Counted from the stretch's first letter, positions 35,456-63,842 are shown. The stretch: 64,000 nucleotides of DNA from a virus (IMGVR_UViG_3300037067_022020:89061-153060); one strand, 5' to 3'. The notes: a model not told the origin generated them from the letters alone. Translations and numbers: made by a program.

Positions 35456-36397
35456 ATGAAAACAAAAATTACAAAATTACAAGTTGGTGATGTAATAAAA
35501 TTAAAACCAGGAATTATACTTGGATTATCTACTGTTTATTCTAAACCATTTTATTCAAAATTACACGAAAAAAATAAAGCTGAAGTTACGAAGATTAATA
35601 AAAGTTCAGTCACAATTAAATTATTTGATGACATATCCATTTGTACTAAGCAATTGAGTGCATATTGGGCCTCATTTACCCATAAAGGAATATCTATCTC
35701 TTCTATTAAATCATGTCGGATCCCATTTATTCGTAATTCAGGAATAAAGGTGAAATTGATAAATTTTGACTCAGATGAACAACGAAAAATTCGGCAATAT
35801 ATTAAAAATGGTAGCAAAGGTAACCTCAATCTCAGCAACACACCAATAACATCACTTCCCGACAATTTAAAACAAGTCGGCGGAAATTTAAATCTCAGCA
35901 ACACACCAATAACATCACTTCCCGACAATCTAACAAGAGTCGGCGGAAGTTTGAATCTTTACAACACACCAATAACATCACTTCCAGATAACTTAACAGT
36001 CGGCGGATATTTGGATCTCCACAACACCAAAATAACATCACTACCAGATAACTTGACAGTTGGCGGGTGGTTGGATCTCAGCAACACACCAATAACATCA
36101 CTACCAGATAACTTGAAAGTCGGCGGATGGTTGGATCTCAACAACACCAAAATAACAAAACTACCAGATAACTTAACAGTGAGAGGAAATGTGTCTCTCA
36201 ACAACACCAAAATAACAAAACTACCAGATAACTTAACAGTTGGTGGATATTTGGATCTCAGCTACACACCAATAACATCATTACCAGATAACTTAACAGT
36301 CAACGGAAATTTGTGGCTTGGCAACACCAAAATAACTTCAATCCCAACTTCAGCAGAAATAAAAGGTGAAATATATGGACTTAAAAAACAAAGTTGA
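35456..36397 (+). CDS. Protein with unrelated N-terminus fused to LRR-like cassette (9 units)
   Basis: (GxLxLxNT[P/K]IT[S/K]LPDNL[T/K]VG)n; 60/63-bp tandem repeat. Confidence 0.8.
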   Translation: MKTKITKLQVGDVIKLKPGIILGLSTVYSKPFYSKLHEKNKAEVTKINKSSVTIKLFDDISICTKQLSAYWASFTHKGISISSIKSCRIPFIRNSGIKVKLINFDSDEQRKIRQYIKNGSKGNLNLSNTPITSLPDNLKQVGGNLNLSNTPITSLPDNLTRVGGSLNLYNTPITSLPDNLTVGGYLDLHNTKITSLPDNLTVGGWLDLSNTPITSLPDNLKVGGWLDLNNTKITKLPDNLTVRGNVSLNNTKITKLPDNLTVGGYLDLSYTPITSLPDNLTVNGNLWLGNTKITSIPTSAEIKGEIYGLKKQS

Positions 36398-36466
36398 AGT
36401 AAAAATTAATTTTTTTTAAAAAACTTTTTTAATTTTTTATTTTTTAAATAATTATTTTAAAATAAA

Positions 36467-36498
36467 TTTGAATTATTAAGAAAAAGTTTTTATATTTA
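36467..36498 (+). promoter_or_regulatory. Class 1 promoter of tRNA operon
   Basis: TTTG-N20-TATATTTA. Confidence 0.7.
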
Positions 36499-36524
36499 TA
36501 ACGAATTTTAAAGAAAAACTTATC

Positions 36525-36620
36525 ATGAACTCGTTTAATAGACATTATCAATTACATATATGGTTTGATGCAAAAACAAGCATTAATCCAATATATAAAA
36601 AATGTGTCCGGGGGTCATGA
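36525..36620 (+). CDS. Putative attenuator leader peptide MNSFNRHYQLHIWFDAKTSINPIYKKCVRGS
   Basis: Manual translation; stop overlaps antiterminator arm. Confidence 0.6.
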   Translation: MNSFNRHYQLHIWFDAKTSINPIYKKCVRGS

Positions 36621-36710
36621 ATCATTTAAACACAGCAACACATTAATAACAACTCTACCAGATAACTGTTTCAGAATGACCCCCGGATATTAAAAATTCG
36701 GGGGTTTTTT
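36604..36710 (+). promoter_or_regulatory. Attenuator: antiterminator 36607-36618/36676-36687 mutually exclusive with terminator 36679-36710
   Basis: TCCGGGGGTCAT/ATGACCCCCGGA perfect 12-bp pair; ACCCCCGGAT-ATTAAAA-ATTCGGGGGT plus TTTTT. Confidence 0.75.
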
Positions 36711-36723
36711 GTTCTTAAAAAAT

Positions 36724-37340: not shown

Positions 37341-37427
37341 GTTTGGTTAGTCAAGTGATCGACGACAGCAGGCTGTTAACCTGATGAACTTAATTGTTCC
37401 GCGGAGGTTTGAATCCTTCACCAAACG
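37341..37427 (+). tRNA. tRNA-Asn(GTT) with long variable arm
   Basis: CAGG-CTGTTAA-CCTG; GAAC-TTAATT-GTTC variable stem; G73. Confidence 0.75.
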
Positions 37428-37434
37428 CAATATT

Positions 37435-37518
37435 GCCATTGTCGCATAGCTGGTCAATTGCGGCAGACTGTAAATCTGCTCTCTTCGGAGTTCGGTGGTT
37501 CGAATCCACCCAACGGCA
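37435..37518 (+). tRNA. tRNA-Tyr(GTA)
   Basis: GCAGA-CTGTAAA-TCTGC; canonical cloverleaf. Confidence 0.9.
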
Positions 37519-37731
37519 CAAAAATAATTGAATGATAGATAATGAATCATAATCATAAAATTTCTCAATATTAGAGTCATGGAGGATAACTCGTCTATTA
37601 GGTGACGACCGTAATTCAATTATTTTTAAACAACTCACAACGGACAAGGCTTTGGCTAAAGTTTTATACAACTGATAAAGTGTATAAGACAGATGATGGG
37701 TAGCGTGTGGTTGACCCGAGTTGTTTTTATT

Positions 37732-37805
37732 GACATCGTATCTCAGTTGAATAGAGAGCTCGACTTTTAATCGAGAGGTCGAAGGTTTGAGTCCTTCCGG
37801 TGTCA
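37732..37805 (+). tRNA. tRNA-Lys(TTT)
   Basis: CTCGA-CTTTTAA-TCGAG. Confidence 0.9.
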
Positions 37806-38596
37806 CAATTAAAAATACCCTCTTGAGCCCGACTGGACGTGCGGGACGTAGAAATAAATCACTTTTTGTTTTAAAAAAATCAAACCTTATATACTTATAT
37901 TAAAAGCTAATATAAGGGGTTTGATTATGAAAATATGCGAAAATAAAAAGTGTAATAAAGAACATACCGGCACTTTTGGAAGTGGAAGATTTTGTAGTAG
38001 AAGATGTGCACATGTATTTAGTACATACAATGACGATAGTAAGCAAAAAAAGCTTAAATCATGTATATATTGTGGAAATAAAACATTAGTCAATAAAAGA
38101 ACATCAGCAAAATATGTTTTTTGCGCTAATTGTGAATCAAAATCATCTTCTAGTATTTTATCAAAAAAATGCAAATTTTGTGAAAATTCATTTCTTACTA
38201 AGACAAGAAATAGAAAATTTTGTTCTATGTCTTGTGCAAGTAAACATAAAAAAATAGGAAATAAAAATATAAAACAAATGTGCGAAGCTTTTAAGAAAAA
38301 ATTAAAAGAGAACCCAGGATGGTTTTCATCTCTTCAAAAAGAATTATATAGAACTGGTAAACAACATGTAGGCGGTGGAACAACAAAATGGTATCAATAT
38401 AAAAACATTAAAGTTCAAGGAACATATGAGTTAAGAACTTGTAAAATACTAGATTATTTTAAAGAACAAAAATTAATAAAAGATTGGGATTATACAAATG
38501 ATAGATTTGTTTATACCTATAATGAAGAACAGCATACTTATTTGATTGATTTTAAAGTATATGAAAATAATGAAGATTTCTATTAAATATACTTTT

Positions 38597-39904
38597 CTAT
38601 CTAAATTCATATAAATCTATATAAGATTTTTTATGAAAAGCACTAAAAACTTTAAATGAATGATTACATTCGTCTAAAGAAACTCGATATTTAACTTTCG
38701 ATTTTTTTATAAGCTGACATAACTCTTTCCAATCTTTAACTCCTTCATTGAAATATTCCTTCCATTGGTCTTTCAAGACAGTAATTGTTAAACTTGGATA
38801 AAATTTCTTATTTTTTAATATGATTACATCATATCCTCTTCTTGCAATTTCCATTGACGCATTAATTGGGTCAGGATAATCAAATTTTAAATTACCTATA
38901 TAACTAGTATAAGCTGGGTTAATTCTAAATAATCTTCCACCTACTATATTTATTCTTTTTTCTAGATTCTTAAATAAAATTTCTTTTTTCCAAAGATTAT
39001 TAATTAATCTATTAAATGGTCTACCTTTATGATGATTATTAGAACTTATTTTTTTACTAAAATCTTCTACGAATATAAACTTACACTTATGATAAATTGC
39101 TAATTTAGATATATTTTTTGAAATTTGCAATATTTCGAAATTTAACTTATTTTGTAAATATTTTGATTGTTTGGAATTTGATGCTTTATTTAGAATTTTA
39201 ATTTTGCTAATAATTTTAGTTAAACTAAATAATTTAGTATCAATTAGTTTATCATTTTCAAATACTGTAATTCCTATGAATTCGGGATTTGAATCAATTC
39301 CTATATATCTATTTTGTTTTAACCCGTCATCATAGTCATTTTCTTCTTCAAATGAAATATAGATAAATCTTGAATCTAATTTAACACAAAATGGTAGTTC
39401 TTTATTTTTTGATTTTTCTTCAATATAGGAAAGTTTCTTGAGATAATTTTTATTTATTTTTGGTAAATCTAATATAATTTTTGTTTTCCAATTTGGTTTA
39501 AAGATTATTTGATTATTATCAATTATATTTAATGTAAAAAATCTATTACCTTTTAATCGTGTCTCACCTTGAATTATAACTGGATATAATCGTTTTTCAA
39601 TAAAAGGCAATTTATCTTTTTTACCTTTTAATCGATCATAAAAATTCTTTTTACCTCCAAATATTACTTTACCTGATGGATCTCGTTTATAAACAGTTTT
39701 TGCTTCATTAAATGCATTTTGTACAAACCATGAATTATTAACTAATTCAATATTATTTAATGTATAGCAAAGTTTCTTAATTTCCTCTTGAGTTTTACCC
39801 TCACATAATCTATTATAACAATATCTAATTAGAATAGAATATTGTTTTTGGTATGTTAAGATATCAAAATTTTCAGAAGTATATGGGAGTTTAATTGTTA
39901 TCAT
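38597..39904 (-). CDS. tnpB: TnpB (zinc-finger-less type)
   Basis: IGIDSN, IFVEDF, INPAYTS..D. Confidence 0.85.
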   Translation of the reverse strand: MITIKLPYTSENFDILTYQKQYSILIRYCYNRLCEGKTQEEIKKLCYTLNNIELVNNSWFVQNAFNEAKTVYKRDPSGKVIFGGKKNFYDRLKGKKDKLPFIEKRLYPVIIQGETRLKGNRFFTLNIIDNNQIIFKPNWKTKIILDLPKINKNYLKKLSYIEEKSKNKELPFCVKLDSRFIYISFEEENDYDDGLKQNRYIGIDSNPEFIGITVFENDKLIDTKLFSLTKIISKIKILNKASNSKQSKYLQNKLNFEILQISKNISKLAIYHKCKFIFVEDFSKKISSNNHHKGRPFNRLINNLWKKEILFKNLEKRINIVGGRLFRINPAYTSYIGNLKFDYPDPINASMEIARRGYDVIILKNKKFYPSLTITVLKDQWKEYFNEGVKDWKELCQLIKKSKVKYRVSLDECNHSFKVFSAFHKKSYIDLYEFR

Positions 39905-40524
39905 TTTATTTCTTCATCAATTTCTTGTTTTTCAATAACTAATTGTTTTTCAATTAATTTAAGTTTTTCTTTTCTTCTTTGTGAATATATTTTCATTGTA
40001 AAACAATGAATTAAATCAATAATTTCTTGGAATATTTCCTTTTCTATGAGTTTTTCATTATCTATATCATTTAAAATAATTATTTCGGTTCCAAACGTAC
40101 TAAATAATTGTTTAAACATATTAAATGAGATTCTGCTTAACCTATCTCTATATGTTATAAAAATTCTATCAATTTTATAATTAATTACTTCGTTTAATAA
40201 TGCTTGAAAATTATCTCTGTCAAAATTTAATCCACTGGCTATGTCTAAGTATACATTATGAATTAATATTCCATTTTTATTACAAAATCCCTCAATGATT
40301 TCCTTTTGATTTTGTAGATCTTTTCTTTGATTTTTAGTTGAGACCCGACAATAAATTACATTTTTACGTTCTATATTAGAGTTTAATAAGTTAAAAACAT
40401 CGTCTTTATCATAATTAAACAGACTATTATATGTTTGATATGCTTTAATCTTACCAGATTTTTTATAATTATATAATGTTTGTCGTGATATTCTTAATAC
40501 TCTTAATACTTCTTTTGCTTTCAT
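39901..40524 (-). CDS. tnpA: IS607 serine recombinase/transposase
   Basis: N-terminal HTH (ISRQTLYNY), YCRVST..Q..DL..Q, DIASG, YRDRLSR. Confidence 0.9.
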   Translation of the reverse strand: MKAKEVLRVLRISRQTLYNYKKSGKIKAYQTYNSLFNYDKDDVFNLLNSNIERKNVIYCRVSTKNQRKDLQNQKEIIEGFCNKNGILIHNVYLDIASGLNFDRDNFQALLNEVINYKIDRIFITYRDRLSRISFNMFKQLFSTFGTEIIILNDIDNEKLIEKEIFQEIIDLIHCFTMKIYSQRRKEKLKLIEKQLVIEKQEIDEEIK

Positions 40525-40848
40525 ATTTACTCTTTTAAATAAGTATTAAAATAAAAAATTTTTCAAAATGTTTTATAAAATATTATTATTTTTAATTTGA
40601 TTAGATAAAATAGTTTGGATATTATAAAACTTATTTTATATATTTATATGAATTTTAATGAAAAATTATATTATATTGAAGTAAAAGGATATGAAAAGGA
40701 CGCCGATAAATATAAATGGGAATCTGTTAGAAATTTAGGATTCAAGCTTGAAGTGTGGTTTAATGAAACAATAACAAAATATGAAAAGTTATATGACATC
40801 ATTTAATTTGTTGTCGTTTAAGTTTTTAAGCTAAATATTATTAAAAAT

Positions 40849-40922
40849 ACCGATTGTCGTATAATGGTGAGTATGCCGCCCCGGCATGGTGGAGGTCGCG
40901 AGTTCGAACCTCTCAGTTGGTG
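40849..40922 (+). tRNA. Degenerate tRNA (Asp-like body, loop reads GGC)
   Basis: CCGCC-CCGGCAT-GGTGG; C33; mismatched T stem. Confidence 0.4.
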
Positions 40923-40928
40923 CTAAAT

Positions 40929-41010
40929 GTAGGTGTTGCCGAGAGGTCAAAGGCGCCGGTCTCCAAAACCGGTCGTAAGTTCGTTGGTTCGATTCCTTCT
41001 ATGTGTGCGC
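40929..41010 (+). tRNA. tRNA-Trp(CCA), degenerate acceptor and T stems
   Basis: CCGGT-CTCCAAA-ACCGG. Confidence 0.55.
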
Positions 41011-41013
41011 AAT

Positions 41014-41099
41014 GCCTCCTTCCGTTAGTGATCGATACGGCCTGCCTTGTAAGCAGGAAACCTTTTTGGTTCGCGTTGGTTTGAATCCAGCAGGGGGCT
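41014..41099 (+). tRNA. tRNA-Thr(TGT) with long variable arm
   Basis: CCTGC-CTTGTAA-GCAGG; AACC-TTTTT-GGTT variable stem. Confidence 0.75.
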
Positions 41100-41122
41100 T
41101 TTTTTATAACTTAATATGTAAC

Positions 41123-41195
41123 AGTGGTATAGCTCAACTGGTAGAGTTTTTGACTGATATTCAAAAGGTTCTTGGTCCGAGTCCAAGTATCACTA
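41123..41195 (+). tRNA. tRNA-Ile(GAT)
   Basis: TTTGA-CTGATAT-TCAAA. Confidence 0.8.
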
Positions 41196-41201
41196 CAAAA
41201 T

Positions 41202-41277
41202 AGAGCAGTTCCAGCAGATGGCTATACGGGCCGCGTTTGGGGCGCGGTATTCGCAGGTTCGAATCCTGTCTGCTCTA
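41202..41277 (+). tRNA. tRNA-Pro(TGG)
   Basis: CCGCG-TTTGGGG-CGCGG. Confidence 0.8.
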
Positions 41278-41281
41278 CAAT

Positions 41282-41355
41282 GGGTCATTGGTGAAATAGG
41301 CTATCATAGAAGCTTCGCAAACTTCAGTTATGGGTTCAATTCCCATATGTATCCA
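41282..41355 (+). tRNA. Degenerate tRNA (Arg-TCG or Ala-CGC)
   Basis: GAAG-CTTCGCAAA-CTTC; bulged acceptor; good T arm. Confidence 0.4.
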
Positions 41356-42142
41356 CATCAAAAATAATTGAAAATAAATTTGATTTTTTCAATAAATTTT
41401 ATTAATTTTATAGTATAAATTAAATAATTAAATTATGAAAACATCATCAACAAAAGTTATTACAATTACAAATAATGTCGATTATGAAAATGGTTTTGGT
41501 TGTGAATATACCATAGTAAATGGTAAATTTATGTTTGGTCATTTTTATAATGAGTTATACAATTATCTTTATTATGTTGATGAAAAAACACTTAATAAAT
41601 TAAAGAATAATCATTGGTCTGAACACCATAAACTATATAAAGAGCCGAAAATAACAAAACAATGGTTGGAAAATTTTAATGAATTTGATAAATTAATTTA
41701 TATCGGTGGTGGAAGGGATGGAATACTTGCATATTCGAATGGAACATTTATATCAACTCCCATTAAATTCGATGATATATTTTTCCATTGCTGGGAACAT
41801 ATCGAAACAACAAAAGAAGAATGTGAAAAAATTCTCAAATCAATGAACTCAAATTTTATAACATCGAGTAATATTATCGAAATTCCTTATTATAACCAAT
41901 CTGAAGATGCTGAAGATCATTACACATTAACCATAACTGTAAAATTACCTGATGATATTTATTTGAATATTCTTAATGGTAATAAATATATTGATGATAT
42001 TTTCAAACAGAAAGTTGTTAAATTTTTAAAACAGTAAATTTGCATCATTAGAAAACTATTCTATTTCTGTCTATGTATCCACATTAAAAAATAAATTTGA
42101 TTTTTTCAATAAATTTTATTAATTTTATAGTATAAATTAAAT
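41346..42142 (+). repeat. Direct repeats (tRNA 3' end plus class 1 promoter; 41346-41423 and 42072-42142) flanking ORF 41435..42037
   Basis: TATGTATCCACAT..AAATAAATTTGATTTTTTCAATAAATTTTATTAATTTTATAGTATAAATTAAAT present twice. Confidence 0.8.
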
Positions 42143-42145
42143 GAT

Positions 42146-43705
42146 ATGAAACTTTCAAAAAAGCAAATAGAAGTTATAAATTTAATGAAGGACACTTATA
42201 TTGTTTGGGTCTCTGGATTAAATCCTTTTTGTTTTTTACACAAATATGTGTCATATAAATTGTCAATAGCAACATTCTTTAAGTTAAAAGATTCAAAATT
42301 AATCTGCTCAAATGGACATTTAGATAATAAAGGTGATGAAGACCAATATATTTTAACAGATCTTGCAGTCGAATTACTTGATGAATTTAAACAAAGATCA
42401 TGAAAGCATATAAAATCTGGCATGACACGAGATATTTTATCCATAAGAATAACATCACAGATTATTCCGTTATGTGGACTACAAACATTGAAGATGCTAA
42501 AGATGTACCTACCTTTTCTGGGGCGGTGAAATTCTTTTCTGATAAACTTGGATTTAACATCTACTCCGGATATGATAGGCTTCATTTATTATAACATTTA
42601 ACATTATGAAAACTTTCGATGATTTTTACAACAAAAAATTAAAACAAGAGGCAAGATATGCAAAAAAACATAAAAAGAGTACTAAAGAATTCATAGAACA
42701 TAATTATAAGTCAATGACAGAATACAAAAAGTTCATGGAACATTTGTACGTTATGAAGGAATGCCATTCATTTTGGCATAGGGATTGTGAAAATAAAAAT
42801 ATTGAATGCCATCGATGCAGCAAATTTTATTCATATGCTGATTTTGATAAAATGAGTGCGAAACAACAAAGAAATATTTAATTTTATACTAATTTAAAAT
42901 TTAAAACCATGAAAAAATCAACAACTGAATTATTCGTTGCCTATCGAGATGGGTTTGATATTGATGAAGTTTTTACAACTTTGATTGAAGCAGAAGAAGC
43001 AGCTGAAAAATTTAATATTCAACATAAATTAATATCTAGAACAAACCCATATAAAGCAATGACATTAGATACAGCAATCTATTTGCTGAAAGTAAGTCTA
43101 TCTGAATAAAGGATAAATATATAAAAAATTATGAGCTCGTTAAACAAAATACCAAAATTCAAAATCGAAAATCGTTCAGATTTTATTGAACATAATCTAT
43201 CATTATTTTATCCCAAATTATCAAAAAAGGAAGCTCGAAATCTTTTAAAGGGGATTTGGAATTTGTATAATACTGCTTTGAAAGCCGGTTATAATAAAGG
43301 TAAATATTTCCCGGATTTTGAAGATTAATCTATTAAACAAATAAAGTTAATAATCATAACTAGATAAGAAATTATGAAATATTTTGAAAAAAGAAATTGG
43401 TTAACTATATTAAGCATTTAGAACATCCAAAATTACCCTATCCACAAGGTTATATTGATAATCATAAAACTGAAATTGATATGTTAAAATGGTTAATCGG
43501 TTGTTATGAAGGTAGAACAGCATCAAAACCAATAGAATATTTGGAAGCATTATTAGATAAATCCGAAAATTATCAAGATTATGTTAATGAAATGAATAAC
43601 CATAATATCACACCAATGAGTGATGTTGATAGATTAAAAATGAAACTCAAAGAAATATCAGTTTTATATAATTGGGTTTATTATAAGAAAATTATAGGAT
43701 TTTAA
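42146..43705 (+). other. Small hypothetical ORFs inserted in tRNA array
   Basis: ORF track. Confidence 0.5.
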
Positions 43706-48674: not shown

Positions 48675-49313
48675 ATGAAGTCTAAAATTGCTGAAGAAAA
48701 AATCCTAATCCCCCGACGTACTCCAGAAGAACGACGGAAAAATTTCATCAAAGCGACACAACAGAAGATTCAACAATACATCAAAAATGGCAGCAACGGA
48801 GATCTTGACCTCCGCAACACACCAATAACATCACTTCCCGACAATCTAACAAGAGTCGGCGGGAGTCTGAATCTCGGCAACACCAAAATAACATCACTTC
48901 CAGATAACTTAACAGTCGGCGGATGGCTGGATCTCTACAACACACCAATAACATCACTTCCCGACAATCTAACAAGAGTCGGCGGGAGTCTGAATCTCGG
49001 CAACACCAAAATAACATCACTTCCAGATAACTTAACAGTCGGCGGGAGTCTGAATCTCGGCAACACCAAAATAACATCACTTCCAGATAACTTAACAGTC
49101 GGCGGATGGCTGGATCTCACCAACACACCAATAACAAAACTACCAGATAACTTGACAGTCGGCGGATGGTTGTATATCAACAACACTCCAATAACATCTC
49201 TACCAGATAACTTAAAAGTCGGCGGAAGTTTGTATCTCCGCAACACCAAAATAACATCAATCCCAACCTCAGAAAAAATAAAAGGTGAAATATATAGACT
49301 TAAAAAAATATGA
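48675..49313 (+). CDS. Stand-alone LRR-like cassette protein (8 units)
   Basis: Same caps and repeats as 62535..63842. Confidence 0.8.
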   Translation: MKSKIAEEKILIPRRTPEERRKNFIKATQQKIQQYIKNGSNGDLDLRNTPITSLPDNLTRVGGSLNLGNTKITSLPDNLTVGGWLDLYNTPITSLPDNLTRVGGSLNLGNTKITSLPDNLTVGGSLNLGNTKITSLPDNLTVGGWLDLTNTPITKLPDNLTVGGWLYINNTPITSLPDNLKVGGSLYLRNTKITSIPTSEKIKGEIYRLKKI

Positions 49314-54073: not shown

Positions 54074-56062
54074 TTAAGTTTGAATAATTAACTCCTGTTT
54101 ATCTATTTTTCCAAAATGTGATTTACGTGAATGAATACTTCCCCAAATACTATTTGTTAAATTTAACTGATTATACAACTTTTCTGGTAAAATAATATAT
54201 CCATTTTTTAATAATAAAATCTTTGAAACAAATATTTTCGCCCATTGTTCAAATGATTCATAATTCATATTATTACTATATTGTTCAACATCAAAATAAG
54301 GAATACTAGTAAATGCAATATCATATTTAATAGATGATAAATCAAATTCCTCTATTTTACAATTATAAATATGACAATTAGTAAAATTAGCATCTTTAAT
54401 TAACTGCAACAATTCTTTATAAGTATCTTTATTCGGCTCACATCCAATATAAGTCCCATTAGGATATTTACTTTTAAATCCTAATAATCTCCCACCAAAC
54501 CCGCAACATGGATCAAACACAACTGGTGTTGGGCTGTCTCCAAGAAGCTTATAATATATAGAACTTGCTAATAATGGTTTGAAAAACGAAATAATAATAC
54601 GTCTAGCTGATAATCCCCTAACTAAATTAGCCAAACTAAAATCAAATGTTTCATTAGAATTATTTAATCCAATCCTATATTTAATCACATCATACATTAT
54701 CTTATCGTCTTTCCATGCTTCTACAGGAGTTTTATTCCCATTGAAATTACTATTCCAGAATGAGTTAAAATGAGATTTAAGATAGTTATTACCCATCGTA
54801 GAACCATTATTACTAAATTTTGTATCATCAATAATCATTTTAGATAAATCATAATTATGAATTTTCGATATAACTTCTTTAAGATTTTCTTTACAAGGAA
54901 GTTTAGGGAGTTCTGGTTGGAACGTTTTGATGAATTTACGGAGTAGGGGAATGTATTTAGCTAATTTTTTTTCACCATGTTTTTGTTTATAATTATTAAA
55001 ATATTTTGCTAAGATTATTTTTTGATTATAATCAATAGAATAATCAGGAATATATGAATGAGATTTTAATGAATTAACTGTAACTATTTCGGGGATATTT
55101 GAAATATGTATTTTCCATAAATTATATCCTGCTTGTAATGCGTCTTTCATTTTTACAAAATCATTTACCACACTATTTATTGGAATAAAAGATAAATTAA
55201 TTAATTTACTCGGATGATGAAAATCACAATCAATTTCAAAAATATCATTTCCTTTAATCATATCGAATTCTCGATGATTAATAAAAAATTTATGTTCGGC
55301 GCCGATAATCCTACAAATTTCTTTTTCTATTAATGATGTTTTCTTATTATGCTCTTTTCTAAAAGCAGGATCCAGTAAATTTGAGGTATACCCACAATGT
55401 ATTAAATTTGTTTGCTTTATTTTTTCTTTAGTACTTTCAAGTTGAGATGGATATTCAACACCATACTTTTCTAAATTAGATTTTTTTATTTTTTTCTTAC
55501 CTATTTCAGAAGCAGTGTATGAATTTGCTCCATATTTTAATTGATTTGTTTCTTTAATCTTTTCTATATTTTGATATTTTTCATCTCCATATCTTTCTAA
55601 TTTAGTTTGTTTGTTTTTATCCATATTATTATATGTTGGATTGTTATATCTCTCTAATTTAGATTGAGCGATTTTATCTCTACATTGTTTTAATTCCATT
55701 GGATTTTTGACTCCATATTTTTTCATCATCGATTTTTCAAGGGAATCATGAATTTGTCTCTTAGTTTCTTCAGTATGAGGATGTCGTGGAAAATGATTAG
55801 TAGTATAATTTTTAAAAAATCCAATGGAATGACAAGAAAAATTTAATTTAGTCCCACATCCACATTTACATGTCGGGTATTCTTTATTAAAATAATATTG
55901 AATTATATATTGTTCAAATAAAAGTTTATGAACTATTTTTAAATGCTTATTTCGTTCATTTACCGTATCACATTGAAAACCACATATTTTGCATTTAAAT
56001 AATTCATCATGTAATGTTTCGGCTGTTCCACAATAACCAGGTTTAAATTTCATAATTTTCAA
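54074..56062 (-). CDS. Zn-finger/KYG-repeat/nuclease-like N-terminus fused to amino-DNA methyltransferase
   Basis: CKIC..H..H, CKCGC, KYGV repeats; FDPCCGFGGRL (motif I), TSIPYF (motif IV). Confidence 0.7.
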   Translation of the reverse strand: MKIMKFKPGYCGTAETLHDELFKCKICGFQCDTVNERNKHLKIVHKLLFEQYIIQYYFNKEYPTCKCGCGTKLNFSCHSIGFFKNYTTNHFPRHPHTEETKRQIHDSLEKSMMKKYGVKNPMELKQCRDKIAQSKLERYNNPTYNNMDKNKQTKLERYGDEKYQNIEKIKETNQLKYGANSYTASEIGKKKIKKSNLEKYGVEYPSQLESTKEKIKQTNLIHCGYTSNLLDPAFRKEHNKKTSLIEKEICRIIGAEHKFFINHREFDMIKGNDIFEIDCDFHHPSKLINLSFIPINSVVNDFVKMKDALQAGYNLWKIHISNIPEIVTVNSLKSHSYIPDYSIDYNQKIILAKYFNNYKQKHGEKKLAKYIPLLRKFIKTFQPELPKLPCKENLKEVISKIHNYDLSKMIIDDTKFSNNGSTMGNNYLKSHFNSFWNSNFNGNKTPVEAWKDDKIMYDVIKYRIGLNNSNETFDFSLANLVRGLSARRIIISFFKPLLASSIYYKLLGDSPTPVVFDPCCGFGGRLLGFKSKYPNGTYIGCEPNKDTYKELLQLIKDANFTNCHIYNCKIEEFDLSSIKYDIAFTSIPYFDVEQYSNNMNYESFEQWAKIFVSKILLLKNGYIILPEKLYNQLNLTNSIWGSIHSRKSHFGKIDKQELIIQT

Positions 56063-56207: not shown

Positions 56208-57824
56208 TTAGACATAATTTAGATGGGTAACAATTAGTTTCCCATAAAATTCAGGACGAAGAATTTTCTTCGCATATCTGCTCATAATGCCCTTACGAGG
56301 AGTAAGATTTGTTGGGTCATAAATCAGCGGAGTCATAATCAATGGAATATATGGTGCATAAACAGCACCCGTCTCAAGGAATTGAGTCCCCCTGAATCCC
56401 ATCAAAGCTAAATTCTCTTTCATATAAGGATTCTTGAACACGTTGAACTTATTATTAACCATACCAATTTTCTGAACACCCATTGCATATTTCATTTCCC
56501 CACCAGTTGTATCAGGTGCATAACCCGGAATTGATTCAATGATAGTAGAAATTTTTGGAGAAATAACCATGAAATTAGCTCCACCACGCAATGTTTTGGC
56601 ATGAATTTGGTTACTAATATCGGTTAATTTAACACCAATTGTTTGGAACCATGACATTTGGTTATATGCTAAGGCATATCCCTGAATGTTATCTTGAACT
56701 GCAAAGGTATTTGCGGCTGTTCTAACAGTTCCAATTTGTGCTGACCAGTAAGCTGTAGTAGCTGCGTTGACAATTAACATATCCAATAGTTCTAAGTCCA
56801 TTTCCATAGAAATGTATTCACCAAGGATTGATGTTAATTCATTTTCAGCATCTACTGAATGATAAGCTGATAAGTCTTGAGCAAATTCAGGAGTCCAAAC
56901 TGCTTTCAACTTTCTTGTTTTAGCAATGATTCCTTCTGAACGAAGACCAATATTGATTTCAGGAATATCCAAAGCATTAGTTGACAATAAGTCAGTATAT
57001 GCAGGATCTCCGGAAGCTTCAAAATCACCTCTTGTTGAAGAAGTTGGTTGCTTATGATATTTGACTGTTTGTGAACCAGTAATTCCAGAACCTGAAACTA
57101 CAAAGGTTACATAACGAGTAGAAGCACCACGAGCTGAATCTAAATTAGCTGTGTAAGCAGGATAGTAAGCATTGATTCCAGAACCTGAAATATAAAATGC
57201 ACGAATACCATTAGTATCATGATTTAAACCATTCATATCTACAGTAACGCGATACATTGTACCATCACTCATAGATGCTGAAAGATCTGAACTATAATTA
57301 ATGTCATCCCATGTTATAGAACCTGTTACACCAGTTGGAGTAGTTGTATATTCGTTAATAGAATATCCAAAACGACCAGCTCCATAAAGACCTTCAGTAG
57401 GATCAGTATTAGCTTGATTGGTAACACCCATTAAAGAATTATCTTGTAATGAAGTTCCTTCTGAAGTTTGGAATCCAGGCTGTGCGGTTGCATATTTAAA
57501 TTCAAGGAAGAATACCAGACCCGAAGGTAGGTTCATAGGTTGTACTGATACGAATTCTTTAGCTGATAATTGAGCAAAAATTCTGCGTACCAATGGAAGA
57601 GCTACACCAGACCATTCTTCTGCATTTGCGGATCCGGTTTTGCTAACTTCATCTAATAACTGACGTGCTTGGTTTTCCAGCATGACAGCCATTGAATGTT
57701 TTTCAAATTCATTTTTTAGACCATCCAAAAGACCGGTTTTTGCCCATTTGCCAACAAGTTTCGCAGATTTAGCGATTTGCTTTTGGTAAGTATCTTTTGT
57801 TTCGTCAATAAGATTGTATTTCAT
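56208..57824 (-). CDS. Major capsid protein, T4 gp23-like
   Basis: LENQ, LPLVRR, VSVQPM..PSGLVF, AKTRKLKA.WT.E.AQDL, YAPYIPL, P.KG.M.RY. Confidence 0.95.
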   Translation of the reverse strand: MKYNLIDETKDTYQKQIAKSAKLVGKWAKTGLLDGLKNEFEKHSMAVMLENQARQLLDEVSKTGSANAEEWSGVALPLVRRIFAQLSAKEFVSVQPMNLPSGLVFFLEFKYATAQPGFQTSEGTSLQDNSLMGVTNQANTDPTEGLYGAGRFGYSINEYTTTPTGVTGSITWDDINYSSDLSASMSDGTMYRVTVDMNGLNHDTNGIRAFYISGSGINAYYPAYTANLDSARGASTRYVTFVVSGSGITGSQTVKYHKQPTSSTRGDFEASGDPAYTDLLSTNALDIPEINIGLRSEGIIAKTRKLKAVWTPEFAQDLSAYHSVDAENELTSILGEYISMEMDLELLDMLIVNAATTAYWSAQIGTVRTAANTFAVQDNIQGYALAYNQMSWFQTIGVKLTDISNQIHAKTLRGGANFMVISPKISTIIESIPGYAPDTTGGEMKYAMGVQKIGMVNNKFNVFKNPYMKENLALMGFRGTQFLETGAVYAPYIPLIMTPLIYDPTNLTPRKGIMSRYAKKILRPEFYGKLIVTHLNYV

Positions 57825-57866
57825 TTTAATTTCCCCTCCTCAGGGAATTTATAGAGTTATTAATGT

Positions 57867-58910
57867 TTATTCTATTCCAGCTAATTTTTTATTTCTTGCT
57901 TTCATAGTTTCTGCATAAACATCAACGTTTTCATTAATTATTTTTTTTGGTTTAGTTGAAGCAATTTTTGTTGAAGCAATACTTTCAGTAATTGCTTTTA
58001 CAAATGGTTTTGCTTTCTTTTCAGTTTTAGAAGCAATCGTTTCTACCAATGTTTGATAAATAAGTTTTGCTTCGCGAACTGTTTTGGCACGATCAATTGA
58101 CTCAACAATCTTCATTTTAGCATCATTATTTAATGCGTATCCTCTAAATATTTTATTGCTGTACAGCAATTTAGAATTTAAAAGATTGATTTCATTTAAT
58201 TTACCACGAAGTATTCCTACAACTTCATATGCGTTATCTAACTGATTTTTCGTTTCAGTTAATTCAGATTTTACTTTTGTTACTTCTTCGATTTCGTCGT
58301 CTTCCTCATTTTCCGGTTCAAGATCGATATCAATTTCTTCTTCACTTTCTTCGGGAGCTTCTTCAGTATCAATATTGATATCAACATCTTCATCAATGTC
58401 TCCTTGCTCATCTTCGTCATCTTCGAGATCGATATTAATATCAACGTCTTCATCAACAGAAGGATTTTCCAGTTCATCTATATTAAATTCTTCTTCATTA
58501 GTTTCATCTGAAGTTTCTTCTGGATTAATAGGGACATCTTGTCCATCAACAGTAAGATTAATTTCTTCTTCTGGTTCAACTGTCACATCGACAGTTTTAT
58601 CCCCGGTTTCAGGATCAGTTGTTACATCTACTTCTTCATCATCCCCGCCAATAGGAATATCAATTGAATCGGGATTTTCTTCAGAAACTTCAATTTCTTC
58701 ATCATTTGATGGTTCTATTTCTTCCTCATTACCATCAGTGATTGATTCTTCATCGTCGTCATCACCAATTTCTTCTTTAATCTTTGCCGAAATCAATGAC
58801 TTTAATCTTGGCTGAAAAGCTTCTTCCAAAGCTAATTTAGCACTTTGAAATGCTGTAGATCTAATTTTTTCAGCATCTGCAATTGCTTCTTTTAAAATAT
58901 CTTTTTCCAT
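57867..58910 (-). CDS. Prohead scaffold/core protein
   Basis: LKEAIADA..AK.ALEEAF, acidic middle, LNEINLLNSKLLY.NK; directly upstream of MCP. Confidence 0.75.
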   Translation of the reverse strand: MEKDILKEAIADAEKIRSTAFQSAKLALEEAFQPRLKSLISAKIKEEIGDDDDEESITDGNEEEIEPSNDEEIEVSEENPDSIDIPIGGDDEEVDVTTDPETGDKTVDVTVEPEEEINLTVDGQDVPINPEETSDETNEEEFNIDELENPSVDEDVDINIDLEDDEDEQGDIDEDVDINIDTEEAPEESEEEIDIDLEPENEEDDEIEEVTKVKSELTETKNQLDNAYEVVGILRGKLNEINLLNSKLLYSNKIFRGYALNNDAKMKIVESIDRAKTVREAKLIYQTLVETIASKTEKKAKPFVKAITESIASTKIASTKPKKIINENVDVYAETMKARNKKLAGIE

Positions 58911-59432: not shown

Positions 59433-59771
59433 TTACTTTTCTACATAAGCCCCATCAAATCCATATGTATAAACCAAATAATTTATCTTTTCAAATCCTT
59501 CTGGTTTATACAATTTAACAGCTACTAAAAGCTCTCCTGTTTCTACCGCATCTTCATCAATCATCGATTGGACTGCACCTGTTTCATCATATTTTTTTAA
59601 TCTTTCCCAATCGTTTGGGTAAATCCCTTTATCCTTAACAACCCCAGGATTTTCATCTCCATAATCTACAACTGGGTCACCCACTTTCACTTGATTAAAT
59701 GGAACTATCTTTGTTTCTTTTACTTCTTCAATCACTTCTTTTATCAATTGTACTAATTCTGATTTTTTCAT
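59433..59771 (-). CDS. MKKSEL-motif protein
   Basis: MKKSELVQLIKEVIEE. Confidence 0.65.
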   Translation of the reverse strand: MKKSELVQLIKEVIEEVKETKIVPFNQVKVGDPVVDYGDENPGVVKDKGIYPNDWERLKKYDETGAVQSMIDEDAVETGELLVAVKLYKPEGFEKINYLVYTYGFDGAYVEK

Positions 59772-59820
59772 AATTTTATCCTATTAATTAAATATATATA
59801 AATAAATTTTTTAAAAAGTT

Positions 59821-60603
59821 TTATCTAAAATCATTAACAATTCTAATTAATTCTCTGGCAAATCCAATATAATCATTTTGTTTCCATTCATCAATATCAA
59901 TCAAACTTGCTGAAATATGATCAATTAATTGGCTCTTTAATTCTTTATTCTTTACATTCAAATCAACCATTATTGAATCATACATCTTTTGTAAATCAAA
60001 ATTTGTTCTTTTTGAACTACAATATGTTTTCAAATTTTTAATAATCCATTGCATATCTAATGTATGTATGCCTTCAGATAATGGTAAGCCATCTTTTTGA
60101 TATCTTTCTTGATCTTTACTTTTAATTAATTTATTCACTGCTTTAAGAGTGAATTTTCCATCTGTATTTTGAGTTGTTTGCTTAACTGTGGCAATTCCAT
60201 TTTTAATTGACTGGACAACTCCTGATATCCTTCTTGGATAATAACCTACCATTATATTCCAATATACTTTATCGCCATTTTTAATCTCATTATCTGGTGG
60301 ATCTATATCTTCTTTTATTTTTATTGGAGAATTTTTCCTTGCCTTTTTCTCAGCTTTTTGAATTTGGTCAGCACTCTTAGACCAAACTTCAGTGTGTTTA
60401 GCTAATGTCATTCCATCTTTTTCAAACTTTTTGCCATCTATATTTCCAGTTTTTGAAAAAGCATTTGGAGTATCATATGCACCAGCGGCACCAGATGTTG
60501 ATATTTCTTCAATAGGTTCCTCATCATCATATAGAAGTTCCTTTTCTTTATTAATATCTCTTACAATTTGCTTGATAAGAGTTATAAGTTCAGATTTTTT
60601 CAT
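59821..60603 (-). CDS. MKKSEL-motif protein
   Basis: MKKSELITLIKQIV; EEISTSGAAGAYDTPNAF. Confidence 0.65.
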   Translation of the reverse strand: MKKSELITLIKQIVRDINKEKELLYDDEEPIEEISTSGAAGAYDTPNAFSKTGNIDGKKFEKDGMTLAKHTEVWSKSADQIQKAEKKARKNSPIKIKEDIDPPDNEIKNGDKVYWNIMVGYYPRRISGVVQSIKNGIATVKQTTQNTDGKFTLKAVNKLIKSKDQERYQKDGLPLSEGIHTLDMQWIIKNLKTYCSSKRTNFDLQKMYDSIMVDLNVKNKELKSQLIDHISASLIDIDEWKQNDYIGFARELIRIVNDFR

Positions 60604-60906: not shown

Positions 60907-60931
60907 ACTTTTCGATAAACTTTTTCAAAAA

Positions 60932-61600
60932 TTAGTTTTTTACAATCTGCTTTAACTCTGATTTTTTCATAATTCTTTCATTTTTAAGTCCATATATTTT
61001 TCCTGATATTTTTGCTGATGGTGGGATTGTTGTTATTTTGGTGCTGTTGAGCCACAAATCTCCGTTGACTGTTAAGTTATCTGGTAGAGTTGTTATTGGT
61101 GTGTGGCTGAGATTCAAACTTCCGCCGACTTTCAAGTTATCTGGTAGTGATGTTATTAGTGTGTGGCTGAGCCACAGATCCCCGCCGACTGTCAAGTTAT
61201 CTGGTAGAGTTGTTATTTTGGTGTTGCTGAGATTCAGATATCCGCCAACTGTTAAGTTATCTGGTAGTTTTGTTATTGGGGTGTTGCCAAGATTCAGATA
61301 TCCGCCGACTTTCAAGTTATCTGGTAGAGTTGTTATTTTGGTGCCGAGGAGACCCAGATATCCGCCGACTTGTTTTAAATTGTCGGGGAGTGATGTTATT
61401 GGGGTGTGATCGAGATACAAACTTCCGCCGACTTGTTTTAAATTGTCGGGAAGTGATGTTATTGGGGTGTAGCTAAGATTCAAACTTCCTCTGCTACCAT
61501 TTTTGATGTACTGTTGAATTTTTTCTCGTGCAAAAATTTCATTTTGCTTAGATTCATTTAATACTTCTTTTATTAATTGTTTTAATTCTGATTTTTTCAT
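60932..61600 (-). CDS. MKKSEL-motif plus LRR cassette (8 units)
   Basis: MKKSELKQ at both N- and C-termini around the LRR. Confidence 0.8.
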   Translation of the reverse strand: MKKSELKQLIKEVLNESKQNEIFAREKIQQYIKNGSRGSLNLSYTPITSLPDNLKQVGGSLYLDHTPITSLPDNLKQVGGYLGLLGTKITTLPDNLKVGGYLNLGNTPITKLPDNLTVGGYLNLSNTKITTLPDNLTVGGDLWLSHTLITSLPDNLKVGGSLNLSHTPITTLPDNLTVNGDLWLNSTKITTIPPSAKISGKIYGLKNERIMKKSELKQIVKN

Positions 61601-61800
61601 AATTCTACTTTATTTAAATTAATGTCCTTTAATTGTTTAATAACTTTTTCTAATTCTCCTTCTGATATCTCGTTATTTTTAACCATTGTTTTAAGCGATG
61701 TAATTATTTTTCTAATTTTGTTTAATTGAGATAGTTGAAATGTATAATTAGTTTCAGCAATTACTTCTTTAATGATTTCTTTTAACTCTTCTTTTTTCAT
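61597..61800 (-). CDS. MKKEEL-motif small protein
   Basis: MKKEELKEIIKEVIAE. Confidence 0.6.
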   Translation of the reverse strand: MKKEELKEIIKEVIAETNYTFQLSQLNKIRKIITSLKTMVKNNEISEGELEKVIKQLKDINLNKVEL

Positions 61801-61868
61801 AATACTTTCTTTTTTGAGTCCAAATATTTTTCCTGATATTTTTGCTGAAGTTGGGATTGATGTTATTT
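61801..61868 (-). pseudogene. Orphan LRR C-cap fragment
   Basis: Reads ITSIPTSAKISGKIFGLKKESI in frame with the next ATG. Confidence 0.7.
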
Positions 61869-62528
61869 TAGTTTTACAATAAAAAGATCACCTTCTTTAT
61901 CTATAGATTTAAATTTATCAGGGTAATATCTTTGCAATAATTTAATAAATAATGTTTCTCTAGCCGGGCCCAAATTATCTTGAGTTTCAGGTTTAAATGC
62001 AAATTCTTTTATATTTTTTTCATCAATTAAATTCCAAATATTTTTTAAATGAGTCGCCAAAACATTTCGATCTTTAACTTTATTTACTCTTTGTGTCATA
62101 ATGTAAAAATTATTTTCATCTTTCTGATTTGCTGCGGGTCCCATTTTTATGATATTTCCCTTATCTAGAGTTGTTATATGTCGAGTACCAAATTTATCCC
62201 TAAAATCATAATGATCCCCGATCATACTTGTTTTCCTTATAGAATTAATTGGAGAACCTAAATATGTTTCAAATAATTTTTGTGTTCCATAACTAAAAAT
62301 AAAATTAGAACCGTCTGAAGTTTCAAGTAGTTTATTAAAATTGAGTAATATTTCATTAAACACACTCTCTTTTAATATAGGTCTGTTTAAAATTTTTTGT
62401 AATTCATATCTATAAAATTCAGATAATTCAATTTTTTGCTTATTACTATATGCTGATCCATATTTTCTATGATCATATAATTCTGAAATTAATTCTATTA
62501 TCAGTTTCTTAAGTTCAGACTTTTTCAT
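61863..62528 (-). CDS. MKKSEL-motif protein
   Basis: MKKSELKKLIIELISE. Confidence 0.65.
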   Translation of the reverse strand: MKKSELKKLIIELISELYDHRKYGSAYSNKQKIELSEFYRYELQKILNRPILKESVFNEILLNFNKLLETSDGSNFIFSYGTQKLFETYLGSPINSIRKTSMIGDHYDFRDKFGTRHITTLDKGNIIKMGPAANQKDENNFYIMTQRVNKVKDRNVLATHLKNIWNLIDEKNIKEFAFKPETQDNLGPARETLFIKLLQRYYPDKFKSIDKEGDLFIVKLK

Positions 62529-62534
62529 ATTATC

Positions 62535-63842
62535 TTATTTTTCACCAAATGCAGTTATAGCTTCTGATTCTTTTAACATTTTTCCTGTTTTTATATCAAA
62601 CCATAAATGAGAATTTCTTTCTCCGGGGAATACAAATGATGATCCATTTGATCCGCCATCAATATGATCATAATCAAGATTTAAAGAACACCAAACTAAA
62701 GGAATATATTCAATACCATTTTCAGTCTCTTTAATATTAATTGTTCCGGCACCGAAAAATACAAATTCGACACGGCTCATGCAATATTGAAAAAGACCAA
62801 GATCCGTTCCGGAAAACACTTTGCTTTTAATTCTGATTCTTGATTCACCTCTATGCTGATCTATTTTTGCTGTTATTTTGGCATTGATTCCAATAGCAGA
62901 AAGCATTTTGTTTAACGATTTAGCGACATTATTTTCAATATATGTATGTAATTGAGCAATAGTTTTAAATCGATCATCAGTTACAAATTCTTGCTTATTT
63001 TCCTTTAAAAGAGTTGTGTCTTTTACTTCAGTGACACATTCTCTTATTATTTGTTTTAACTCTGATTTTTTCATAATGTTTTCCTGTTTGAGTCCATATA
63101 TTTCACCTGTTATTTTTGCTGAAGCTGGGATTGTTGTTATTTTGGTGTTGCGGAGATCCAAACTTCCGCCGACTGTTAAGTTATCTGGTAGAGTCGTTAT
63201 TGATGTGTAGTTGAGATTCAAATCTCCGCCGACTCGTTTTAAATTGTCGGGAAGTGATGTTATTGGTGTGTTGCTAAGAGACAAACTCCCGCCGACTCTT
63301 GTTAGATTGTCGGGAAGTGATGTTATTGGTGTGTTTTTGAGATACAAACTCCTGCCGACTGTCAAGTTATCTGGTAGTGATGTTATTTTGGTGTCGTTAA
63401 GATACAAATTCCCGTTGACTGTCAAGTTATTTGGTAGTGATGTTATTTTGGTGTTGCCGAGATTCAGACTCCCGCCGACTCTTGTTAGATTGTCGGGAAG
63501 TGATGTTATTGGTGTGTTGTTGAGATCCAGCCACCCGCCGACTGTTAAGTTATCTGGTAGTTTTGTTATTGGTGTGTTGCTGAGATACAAACTCCCGCCG
63601 ACTTGTTTTAAACTGTCGGGAAGTGATGTTATTGGAGTGTTGCTAAGATCGAGATCTCCGTTGCTGCCATTTTTGATGTACTGTTGGATCTTTTGATGGG
63701 TAGCTTTTATGAAATTTCTTCTGCGTTCTTCTGGAGTACGTCGAGGGATTAAGATTTTTTCTTCAGCGAAAGCTGTTTTGGTGAGAGAATTGTTTTCTTG
63801 AAGTACTTTTTTGATGATGGAGATTAGTGTTGATTTTTTCAT
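62535..63842 (-). CDS. MKKST-motif plus LRR cassette (9 units), second MKKSEL motif and unknown C-terminal domain
   Basis: ORF translation. Confidence 0.8.
   Translation of the reverse strand: MKKSTLISIIKKVLQENNSLTKTAFAEEKILIPRRTPEERRRNFIKATHQKIQQYIKNGSNGDLDLSNTPITSLPDSLKQVGGSLYLSNTPITKLPDNLTVGGWLDLNNTPITSLPDNLTRVGGSLNLGNTKITSLPNNLTVNGNLYLNDTKITSLPDNLTVGRSLYLKNTPITSLPDNLTRVGGSLSLSNTPITSLPDNLKRVGGDLNLNYTSITTLPDNLTVGGSLDLRNTKITTIPASAKITGEIYGLKQENIMKKSELKQIIRECVTEVKDTTLLKENKQEFVTDDRFKTIAQLHTYIENNVAKSLNKMLSAIGINAKITAKIDQHRGESRIRIKSKVFSGTDLGLFQYCMSRVEFVFFGAGTINIKETENGIEYIPLVWCSLNLDYDHIDGGSNGSSFVFPGERNSHLWFDIKTGKMLKESEAITAFGEK

Follow-up and report, generated by a model that had tools for sequence, protein, structure and literature searches.

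Introduction

The short bacterial leucine-rich repeat (LRR) fold, hypervariable LRR loci and the internal proteins of phage T4 are all known from earlier work, and all three serve here as points of comparison for a dispersed family of capped LRR genes found in a virus contig from the IMG/VR database (IMGVR_UViG_3300037067_022020:89061-153060). The stretch analysed, bases 89061-153060, is the terminal 64 kb (64,000 nucleotides) of a contig of 153,060 bases, and is referred to below as the window. The T4 internal proteins are diverse, are injected and counter host defences, with IPI* protecting DNA from GmrSD, and they share only an N-terminal targeting sequence of about ten residues that is trimmed by gp21 (PMC3012670, PMC9958956). 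A tandem hypervariable LRR locus has been described from Flavobacterium psychrophilum (Altae-Tran et al. 2020, PMC10392669; Duchaud 2007), and its products are bacterial cell-surface proteins with a signal peptide, a signal at the C-terminus for type 9 secretion and units of about 22 residues (PMC10392669).

A preliminary description of the window had compared the cassettes with two further systems, proposing that they diversify in the manner of variable lymphocyte receptors (VLRs) or of diversity-generating retroelements (DGRs), and that they constitute a recombination-driven repertoire of binders. The VLRs of lampreys and hagfish arise by somatic assembly, in which one incomplete germline gene is filled in from hundreds of silent cassettes; the target of a DGR is a single 3'-terminal variable region (VR). 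The analysis presented here retains the binder repertoire as a case of inherited-gene evolution, on the evidence of unit and gene copy-number differences, shared multi-unit blocks and nonsynonymous change on the concave face, and discards the DGR and VLR mechanisms. It seems to us rather likely that the genes make up an inherited, recombining and positively selected repertoire of LRR binders, probably packaged in the way that the T4 internal proteins are.

A family of capped LRR genes

A search of the whole contig identified six capped LRR genes (A-F), each of them a complete open reading frame (ORF) with its own start and unique flanking sequence. Four of these (C-F) lie within the window and, as had been reported, the same capped cassette recurs among them on both strands; the remaining two lie upstream of the window (A, C1:32469-32927; B, C1:66399-68027). 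The module of genes C-F runs from an N-cap (..QQYIKNGS) through eight or nine units to a C-cap (ITSIP..IYGLK), with every gene closing on a distinct C-cap unit. When the modules are cut at the I-T-x-L-P anchor, the contig yields 48 units of 20 or 21 residues, and 34 of them belong to the window, which is the number first estimated. A blastn search of the contig with cassette D recovered the six cassettes and two scraps of 35 and 60 bp (36633-36667 and 61810-61869), and nothing else. The cassette fragments noted previously are therefore real, one being a decayed N-cap with a single unit and the other a lone C-cap fused to a leader.

Pfam matches above cut-off were obtained to LRR_1 and LRR_4 in genes C, D and F, and to LRR_1 only in genes B and E. 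AlphaFold2, applied to gene D without an alignment, returned a confident and regular LRR solenoid (predicted local distance difference test, pLDDT, 89.8), in which the N-cap has a helix and every xLxL segment carries short strands. Among solved proteins, Vibrio FlrP is the closest relative (PDB 8z5u; E 6.5e-27, 37% identity), followed by the LRR domains of SlrP (1e-15), SspH1, IpaH and YopM, and the top Foldseek matches of the gene D model are FlrP and LRR domains of the IpaH/SspH class. Sequence and model together place the module in the short bacterial LRR class, as a capped solenoid with a unit of 20-21 residues.

What the phage proteins have in common with SlrP, SspH1/2, IpaH, YopM and FlrP is an LRR type of 20-22 residues ending in LP, and only the LRR part aligns. 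Unlike the SlrP/SspH/IpaH effectors, they have no NEL ubiquitin-ligase domain in Pfam searches and no secretion signal; FlrP, for its part, is a Sec-exported periplasmic protein that binds the flagellar rod. The NCBIfam effector models scored 14-47 bits against cut-offs of 1113-1243 (SlrP, 46.8 against 1113), and membership of the IpaH/SspH/SlrP group of NEL effectors was rejected on the absence of the NEL domain and on scores so far under the family cut-offs.

Variation on the predicted binding face

In the canonical LRR register, LxxLxLxx(N/T), the positions x3, x5, x7 and x8 are the exposed positions of the beta-strand and ascending loop, which bind ligand in LRR proteins generally. By this register, as opposed to model coordinates, positions 2, 4, 6 and 7 of the phage unit would be x3, x5, x7 and x8 on the concave face, with T8 in the place of the asparagine ladder. 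These four positions are also the highly variable codons: position 2 is occupied by S, Y, D, W or N, position 4 by D, N, Y, W or S, position 6 by ten kinds of residue, and position 7 mostly by N, with Y, H, D, G and S. The codon table shows a near-invariant protein frame at G1, L3, L5, T8, I10, T11, L13, P14, D15, N16, L17 and V20, and two- or three-way choices at positions 9 (P/K), 12 (S/T/K), 18 (T/K) and 21 (G/N). The alphabet used at the exposed positions (S, Y, W, D, N, G, R and H) is binder-like.

Across all 861 pairs of internal units, positions 2/4/6/7 have a pairwise nonsynonymous difference (pN) of 0.40 and the frame one of 0.043, in agreement with the earlier proposal that variation is concentrated on the predicted concave face. 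The synonymous difference of the frame (pS) is 0.43 over all pairs, a high value due to the existence of discrete unit types, and falls to 0.23-0.31 within types, where the pN of the exposed codons is 0.35-0.44. The exposed codons thus change at or above the silent-site rate, and the frame changes 10-40 times more slowly. In six units drawn from four genes, codon 5 and codons 8-20 are the same throughout, yet x2, x4 and x6 differ. LRR families under arms-race selection display the same pattern of fast exposed codons and a slow frame, and the pattern observed here lends support, which is not the same as proof, to diversifying selection on the exposed codons, or at least to their full freedom to vary.

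Unit types and mosaicism

The description of the units as near-identical in DNA holds within two or three discrete unit types and fails over the set as a whole, as the two values of frame pS indicate. The 21-residue units, twelve in number, all carry the linked synonymous set CTT-CCC-GAC-AAT (with one CTC and one AGT), and the 20-residue units carry CTA-CCA-GAT-AAC; similarly, P units carry ACA-CCA (codon 8 being ACC in three and ACT or ACG in three), and K units carry ACC-AAA. Exact DNA runs between genes measure 26-85 nt, the longest being a two-unit block, four variable codons included, that is shared by genes D and F on opposite strands 14 kb apart. Internal repeats occur as well: a two-unit block of gene D is duplicated (108 nt exact, which is read as recent), and gene B has a repeat of 74 nt. 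Of the unit peptides, 46 of 48 are distinct, and for 37 of 48 units the nearest DNA neighbour resides in another gene. To that extent the units are indeed shuffled between copies, but genes A, D and F all open with one and the same series of three unit types (DDxN, SxxN and WDxN). In view of this common start and of the shared unit blocks, we read the sequences as those of true paralogs with exchanged and duplicated blocks of units, and not as random shuffles.

Unit blocks common to several genes, two partial cassettes, and identical frames that could support copy-choice might also be expected from programmed assembly of the VLR or pilin kind, whereby one expressed gene would be rebuilt from silent donor units during infection. 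The likeness to VLRs is real in that both are capped LRR solenoids of interchangeable-looking units, varying in their concave face and in their number of units. The phage genes, however, are all complete and inherited, the partial copies are short and decayed, no donor library was found in the contig by blastn, and the order of the first three units is maintained in A, D and F. A VLR-like mechanism was ruled out by the completeness of the six genes and the want of any store of silent units, and we regard programmed assembly in general as extremely improbable.

Codon usage and the case for a retroelement

The third base of the variable codons is mostly kept, as previously stated, being T at positions 2 and 4 (TGG excepted) and C at positions 6 and 7. 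The variable codons are consequently for the most part of the form NNY (Y, a pyrimidine), with AAC and AAT common among them, and a change from AAY to NNY had been taken as the signature of a DGR. Under this hypothesis a reverse transcriptase encoded on the missing 30% of the genome would copy an A-rich template into the cassettes with adenine-specific errors. With DGRs of the Bordetella phage BPP-1 Mtd type the cassettes have in common that they are phage-encoded binders with mostly NNY variable codons and with diversity on the ligand-binding face; they differ in having an LRR fold instead of a C-type lectin or Ig fold, and many targets instead of one VR (48 in six genes, on both strands, across 120 kb).

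The evidence nevertheless speaks against a DGR. No RVT_1 match was found in the 153-kb contig, which is incomplete (about 70%), although control genomes did match, and a blastn search with the cassette, extended beyond the window to the whole contig, found no non-coding extra copy that could serve as a template. When substitutions are tabulated by consensus base, non-consensus letters amount to 14.4% at A, 15.8% at C, 22.6% at G and 13.0% at T, a distribution that shows no bias towards adenine. Of the A-consensus columns, thirteen are constant throughout and another three change in one or two units only; the invariant columns include codon 8 nt1, codon 9 nt3, codon 10 nt1 and nt3, codon 11 nt1, codon 15 nt2, codon 16 nt1, codon 18 nt1 and nt3, and codon 19 nt3, and they fall in ACN, CCA/AAA, ATA ACA, GAT, AAC, ACA/AAA and AGA/CAA. 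TGG, which occurs 13 times at variable sites, the near-invariance of ATA-ACA and the lack of a reverse transcriptase had already been listed as points against a DGR, and they carry over to the contig at large. Relatives of the family, moreover, gain and lose whole genes instead. With no RVT_1 and no template on the contig, no adenine bias and so many A columns invariant, a DGR was rejected, and the chance that one hides on the missing part of the genome appears very small.

The NNY pattern can be explained from the sequences by the residue alphabet and the common descent of the units, which together suffice, since the residues in use (N, D, Y, H, G, R, and S as AGY) all have Y-ending codons. 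C-ending codons are rare in this genome, as was pointed out in the preliminary description, but their enrichment spans the whole cassette and is not confined to the variable codons. Asn is encoded by AAC in 71% of cases within the cassettes and in 12% elsewhere in the genome, with corresponding figures of 93% against 19% for GTC and 80% against 17% for GGC; CTC reaches 61% in the cassettes, and the GC content of third codon positions is 0.386 in the cassettes against 0.164 in the rest of the phage. In related loci, positions 6 and 7 end mostly in T and not in C (170 units with a non-Pro residue at position 9, from 31 loci). Because the preference for C is cassette-wide and the relatives use T at the same positions, C at positions 6 and 7 is best seen as a legacy of the unit ancestral to this lineage. 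Their unusual codon usage suggests that the cassettes were imported fairly recently, from a source less rich in AT, and then amplified.

Relatives and turnover

Relatives of the repeat are widespread, with at least 3,300 proteins at E <= 1e-3 among 8,000 candidates scored, from both phage and bacterial contigs; the named sources include Flavobacterium, Clostridia and Bacteroidales, and almost all of the proteins are annotated as hypothetical. Many members from bacteria and temperate phages, that of Edwardsiella phage Edno5 among them, lack an N-cap and have at their C-terminus an unnamed domain of about 150 residues. The capped form (..PRRxxEERxKN(Y/F)....QQYIK.GS) was found at 71 IMG/VR loci, often in arrays, and was absent from the cultured phages of the collection searched.

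Tandem arrays contain up to eight copies (locus L047). Loci L024 and L047, which come from different samples, are 99.8% identical on both sides and differ by one whole LRR gene of 658 bp, a difference that has the signature of unequal crossing-over. In the 1 kb upstream of the first LRR gene, L024 and L026 show 2.9 differences per kb; as soon as its first codons are reached the figure is 183 per kb, and this jump of about 60-fold marks the cassettes of the relatives, on sequence comparison, as hot spots of divergence in natural populations. The arrays in L024/L047 (about 9980-15900) and in L026 consist of 7-8 tandem capped LRR genes.

As an evolving system, the family most resembles the LRR locus of F. 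psychrophilum, where there are likewise many paralogous LRR genes with near-identical units that are hypervariable on one face and vary in number, together with gene fragments and evidence of recombination on short timescales (PMC10392669). The phage family stands apart in being phage-encoded, in its 20-21-residue units, in its N- and C-caps, and in a leader resembling a capsid-targeting sequence. Neither a signal peptide nor a type 9 secretion signal was seen in the sequences, which were read directly and without a predictor: at the N-terminus there are charged amphipathic leaders in place of hydrophobic signal peptides, and the proteins end in LRR caps or unrelated cargo. In the scenario preferred here, unequal crossing-over between near-identical frames would duplicate and delete units and whole genes, blocks of units would be exchanged between paralogs, and diversifying selection (or at least relaxed constraint) would act on point changes at the exposed codons. 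Diversity would in this manner build up over evolutionary time, with neither a reverse transcriptase nor a programmed assembly of cassettes.

The leader and the prospect of capsid delivery

A leader of the form MKK(S/E)(E/T)L.. is present at seven gene starts and two internal sites of the contig. Eight of the nine are on the minus strand between 59.4 and 63.8 kb, directly upstream of the genes for a very acidic scaffold-like protein and the major head protein. The first (I/L/V)xE occurs at residues 10-16 in most leaders, with orf260 having none before residue 31; gp21 of T4 cuts after (L/I)xE. In genes A, D and F, and in their close protein relatives, L-T-E, I-A-E or F-A-E stands immediately before the N-cap EKILIPRR, and the close relatives P0006 and P0007 share the MKKSELK leader. 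The leader of gene F is modelled by AlphaFold2 as an amphipathic helix (residues 3-26). In other lineages the same N-cap is preceded by a different leader, MIKL(I/L)D(I/L)L(x)E, which also heads unrelated genes of the same contigs, such as that of a P-loop protein in L084. We infer packaging because the leader changes with the phage lineage and not with the protein, which is how the T4 capsid targeting sequence behaves.

The position of the genes is of interest in this respect. In locus L067 the order is portal, two ORFs, a 619-residue protein ending in LRRs, a 371-residue MIKL-leader protein with two LRR modules, prohead protease and acidic scaffold; in L045 it is LRR, large terminase, portal, protease and major head protein. 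These two LRR genes of L067 are at L067:8519-11497; the LRR module that ends the first is capped, and the two capped modules of the MIKL-leader gene are joined by an acidic linker (..KEMVRKIMKEMIDDDD..). From the shared, lineage-specific leader that most copies bear and the location within a head-morphogenesis module, capsid delivery of the LRR proteins is probable. The leader would load them into the prohead in the manner of the T4 internal proteins, a gp21-type prohead protease would trim them, and the trimmed proteins would be injected with the DNA and bind host proteins, most plausibly proteins of defence.

Regarded as a delivery system, the family finds its closest likeness in the T4 internal proteins. 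IPI, IPII, IPIII and Alt are similarly the products of a T4-type phage in which a short (L/I)xE leader heads otherwise unrelated small proteins; in both cases the genes are found within or close to the head module and tRNA region, the content varies between related phages, and the mature proteins are basic (pI 9.0-9.7 in 5/6 of the mature LRR modules). The differences are that the LRR proteins have no relation in sequence or fold to IPI-III, that they represent a repeat-protein binder in several diversified copies, that their packaging and cleavage are predicted, and that some copies are leaderless and others have a second leader and cargo.

Fusions of the latter kind are seen in gene F, where the C-cap passes in frame into MKKSELKQIIRE and a 179-residue domain, and in gene E, where it passes into a truncated copy; the lone C-cap scrap at 61801-61880 abuts MKKEELKEIIKE. 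The junction recurs as IYGLK-x-E-x-I-MKKSELK in seven close protein relatives, where the cargo domains behind it are of at least four unrelated kinds. The internal ATG at the second leader is preceded by GAAAG-like purine runs, and a prohead protease may cut binder and cargo apart, or translation may also begin at this ATG. In the former event, LRR, second leader and cargo in one frame could be cut into two packaged proteins. The repeated leader DNA that flanks the cassette is in addition an obvious substrate for recombination events that would place the cassette before different genes. One may go further and suppose that each copy is loaded into the capsid, delivered together with the DNA and directed at neutralising a different host defence protein, with the leader-LRR-leader-cargo genes being protease-cut polyproteins that deliver a binder and an effector; this extension is speculative, and in our judgement doubtful.

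Several points weigh against the reading of the family as a positively selected and capsid-delivered repertoire. Genes B and C are without a leader, genes A and D have only very short pre-sequences, and (L/I)xE is a short motif that is common in Lys/Glu-rich proteins. Searches with Pfam Peptidase_S77 and with immuto-phage proteins matched no portal or prohead protease, a negative that says little for a contig that is about 70% complete and ends just past gene F; by the head-gene order of the immuto phages, both genes are probably situated just past the contig end, beside F. The homologue in Edwardsiella phage Edno5, a temperate siphovirus, is an early-region gene, close to the repressor and RecT, with neither leader nor N-cap, and given such members in Edno5 and in bacteria it would follow that capsid delivery cannot be the only mode of the wider repeat family. 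With regard to selection, the exposed codons have a pN that exceeds frame pS by a modest factor (about 1.2-1.9 fold), one that derives from non-independent unit pairs, and relaxed constraint combined with homogenisation of the frame may be an alternative to positive selection. Finally, the contig is a short-read metagenome assembly of a repeat family, and the order of units in each cassette is as assembled.

This last point could be taken to mean that there are fewer real genes and that their repeats have been mis-joined. Exact repeats do not, however, exceed 108 nt, no two copies agree in their flanks or in their set of variable codons, and the independent assemblies of the 71 related loci present the same architecture; an assembly artefact is accordingly considered very improbable.

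The points concerning the leader would sit well with LRR proteins that are cytoplasmic accessory proteins, acting after infection on host or defence factors and never packaged, the shared N-terminus being a start region or a handle for recombination. The leaderless genes B and C, the location of the Edno5 homologue in an early and lysogeny-control region, and the prohead protease that was not found on the contig are all compatible with such a role, as are bacterial homologues with other fusions, such as PcfJ or the unnamed C-terminal domain. This alternative has to contend with a leader that varies by phage lineage while the N-cap remains constant, that is common to unrelated proteins and that ends in (L/I)xE, and with genes that lie inside head modules and, in L067, between portal and protease. 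On balance we think it unlikely.

A hypervariable repeat face is typical of the receptor-binding tips of phages, and it might be explained as well if the proteins were adhesins on the outside of the virion, serving for receptor binding or decoration, with a variable face that follows variation of the host surface; the closest solved relative, FlrP, binds a large extracellular/periplasmic machine. Yet no domain of a fibre, collagen-like or baseplate-attachment kind came up in domain searches, the proteins themselves are small and basic, the genes are among head and not tail genes, and the copies are many, dispersed and provided with cargo fusions, so that an adhesin is in our opinion improbable.

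The source phage and the surroundings of the LRR genes

The window has a GC content of about 27%. Its gp23-type major head protein has its best cultured relatives in Microcystis phage Mel-JY01 and Flavobacterium immuto phages (about 52% identity). On account of this head protein, and of a Dda-like helicase, an NAD ligase and 18 tRNA genes in the window, the source is identified from its genes as an uncultured, distant T4-like myovirus; its host is probably Flavobacterium-like. The LRR genes, their remnants and the associated head and leader genes are listed in Table 1.

Table 1. Coordinates, within the window, of the capped LRR genes, their remnants and the leader-bearing and head genes next to them.
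Feature	Coordinates	Strand	Organization	Further details
LRR gene C	35456..36397	(+)	120-residue N-terminal domain, N-cap, 9 units, C-cap; without MKKSELK leader	LRR DNA about 35779-36388; Pfam LRR_4/LRR_1
Decayed remnant	36562..36690	(+)	Degenerate N-cap (..QYIKNVSGG..) and one partial unit (NTLITTLPDN)	DNA match to cassette D 36633-36667
LRR gene D	48675..49313	(+)	Pre-sequence MKSKIAE, N-cap, 8 units, C-cap	LRR DNA 48669-49310; AlphaFold2 solenoid
Head genes	56208..58910	(-)	Very acidic scaffold-like ORF (57867-58910) and gp23-type major head protein (56208-57824)	Directly downstream of leader/LRR array
Two non-LRR genes	59433..60603	(-)	Same MKKSEL.. start (59433-59771 and 59821-60603)	
LRR gene E	60932..61600	(-)	MKKSELKQLIKEVLNE leader, short N-cap, 8 units, C-cap, in-frame truncated MKKSELKQIVKN leader, stop	LRR DNA 60981-61519
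Lone C-cap remnant	61801..61880	(-)	KTKITSIPTSAKISGKIFGLKKESI; stops upstream; abuts MKKEELKEIIKEVIAE leader of 67-residue ORF 61597-61800	blastn match 61810-61869
Non-LRR gene with leader	61863..62528	(-)	MKKSELKKLIIELISE leader; between gene F and C-cap remnant	
LRR gene F	62535..63842	(-)	Leader MKKSTLISIIKKVLQE, N-cap, 9 units, C-cap	LRR DNA 63087-63767
Gene F continuation	within 62535..63842	(-)	In-frame second leader MKKSELKQIIRE from 63074, then 179-residue cargo domain	

The N-terminal domain of gene C, the C-terminal domain of gene B, the cargo of gene F and the leader genes gave nothing useful in Pfam, PHROGs and NCBIfam searches. Two ESM Atlas look-ups of non-LRR parts returned 0.75-0.78 against unnamed viral clusters, and the cargo domain in the AlphaFold2 model of F was below confidence.

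The decayed remnant overlaps a candidate leader-peptide attenuator of the tRNA operon (36525-36720), part of which may be a dead LRR gene; the 31-codon ORF of the candidate attenuator is in a different frame from the LRR remnant. The tRNA genes form four clusters (37341-46751) between LRR genes C and D, and among them the calls of tRNA-Ile(tat), tRNA-Phe(aaa) and tRNA-Ala(cgc) look unusual. Gene C and the first tRNA cluster are flanked by transposase-like ORFs at 33161-34420 and 38597-39904, one of which matches phrog_506 (E 1e-59) and the other phrog_12300 weakly; neither has an apparent connection to the cassettes. A 662-residue homing-endonuclease-like ORF (54074-56062(-); phrog_3339, phrog_12131) directly follows the major head protein gene on its downstream side. 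At the other end of the window, a 1114-residue ORF (1444-4788) with GtrB-like, galactosyl-transferase and DNA-methyltransferase-like matches is part of a large set of glycan and modification genes.

Implications

A cautionary lesson is that variable codons of the NNY type are not by themselves the signature of a DGR. No description of the capped LRR family, and none of a phage LRR family with leaders resembling capsid-targeting sequences, was encountered in the literature searched on phage LRR proteins with capsid targeting or anti-defence roles. Should the inference of packaging fail, there would still be a clear hypervariable family of paralogs in a phage. The regular frame, which folds confidently without an alignment, is also attractive as a designable scaffold for binders.

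The T4 internal proteins known to date are the classic injected counter-defence proteins, and each is a single, unrelated small fold; a diversified repeat scaffold would be something different. The copies of this family turn over between near-identical phages and apparently bear a leader for loading into the capsid. If the reading is true, they would amount to a modular and evolvable platform for binders on the side of the phage, a counterpart of the LRR sensors that hosts deploy in plants, animals and bacteria.

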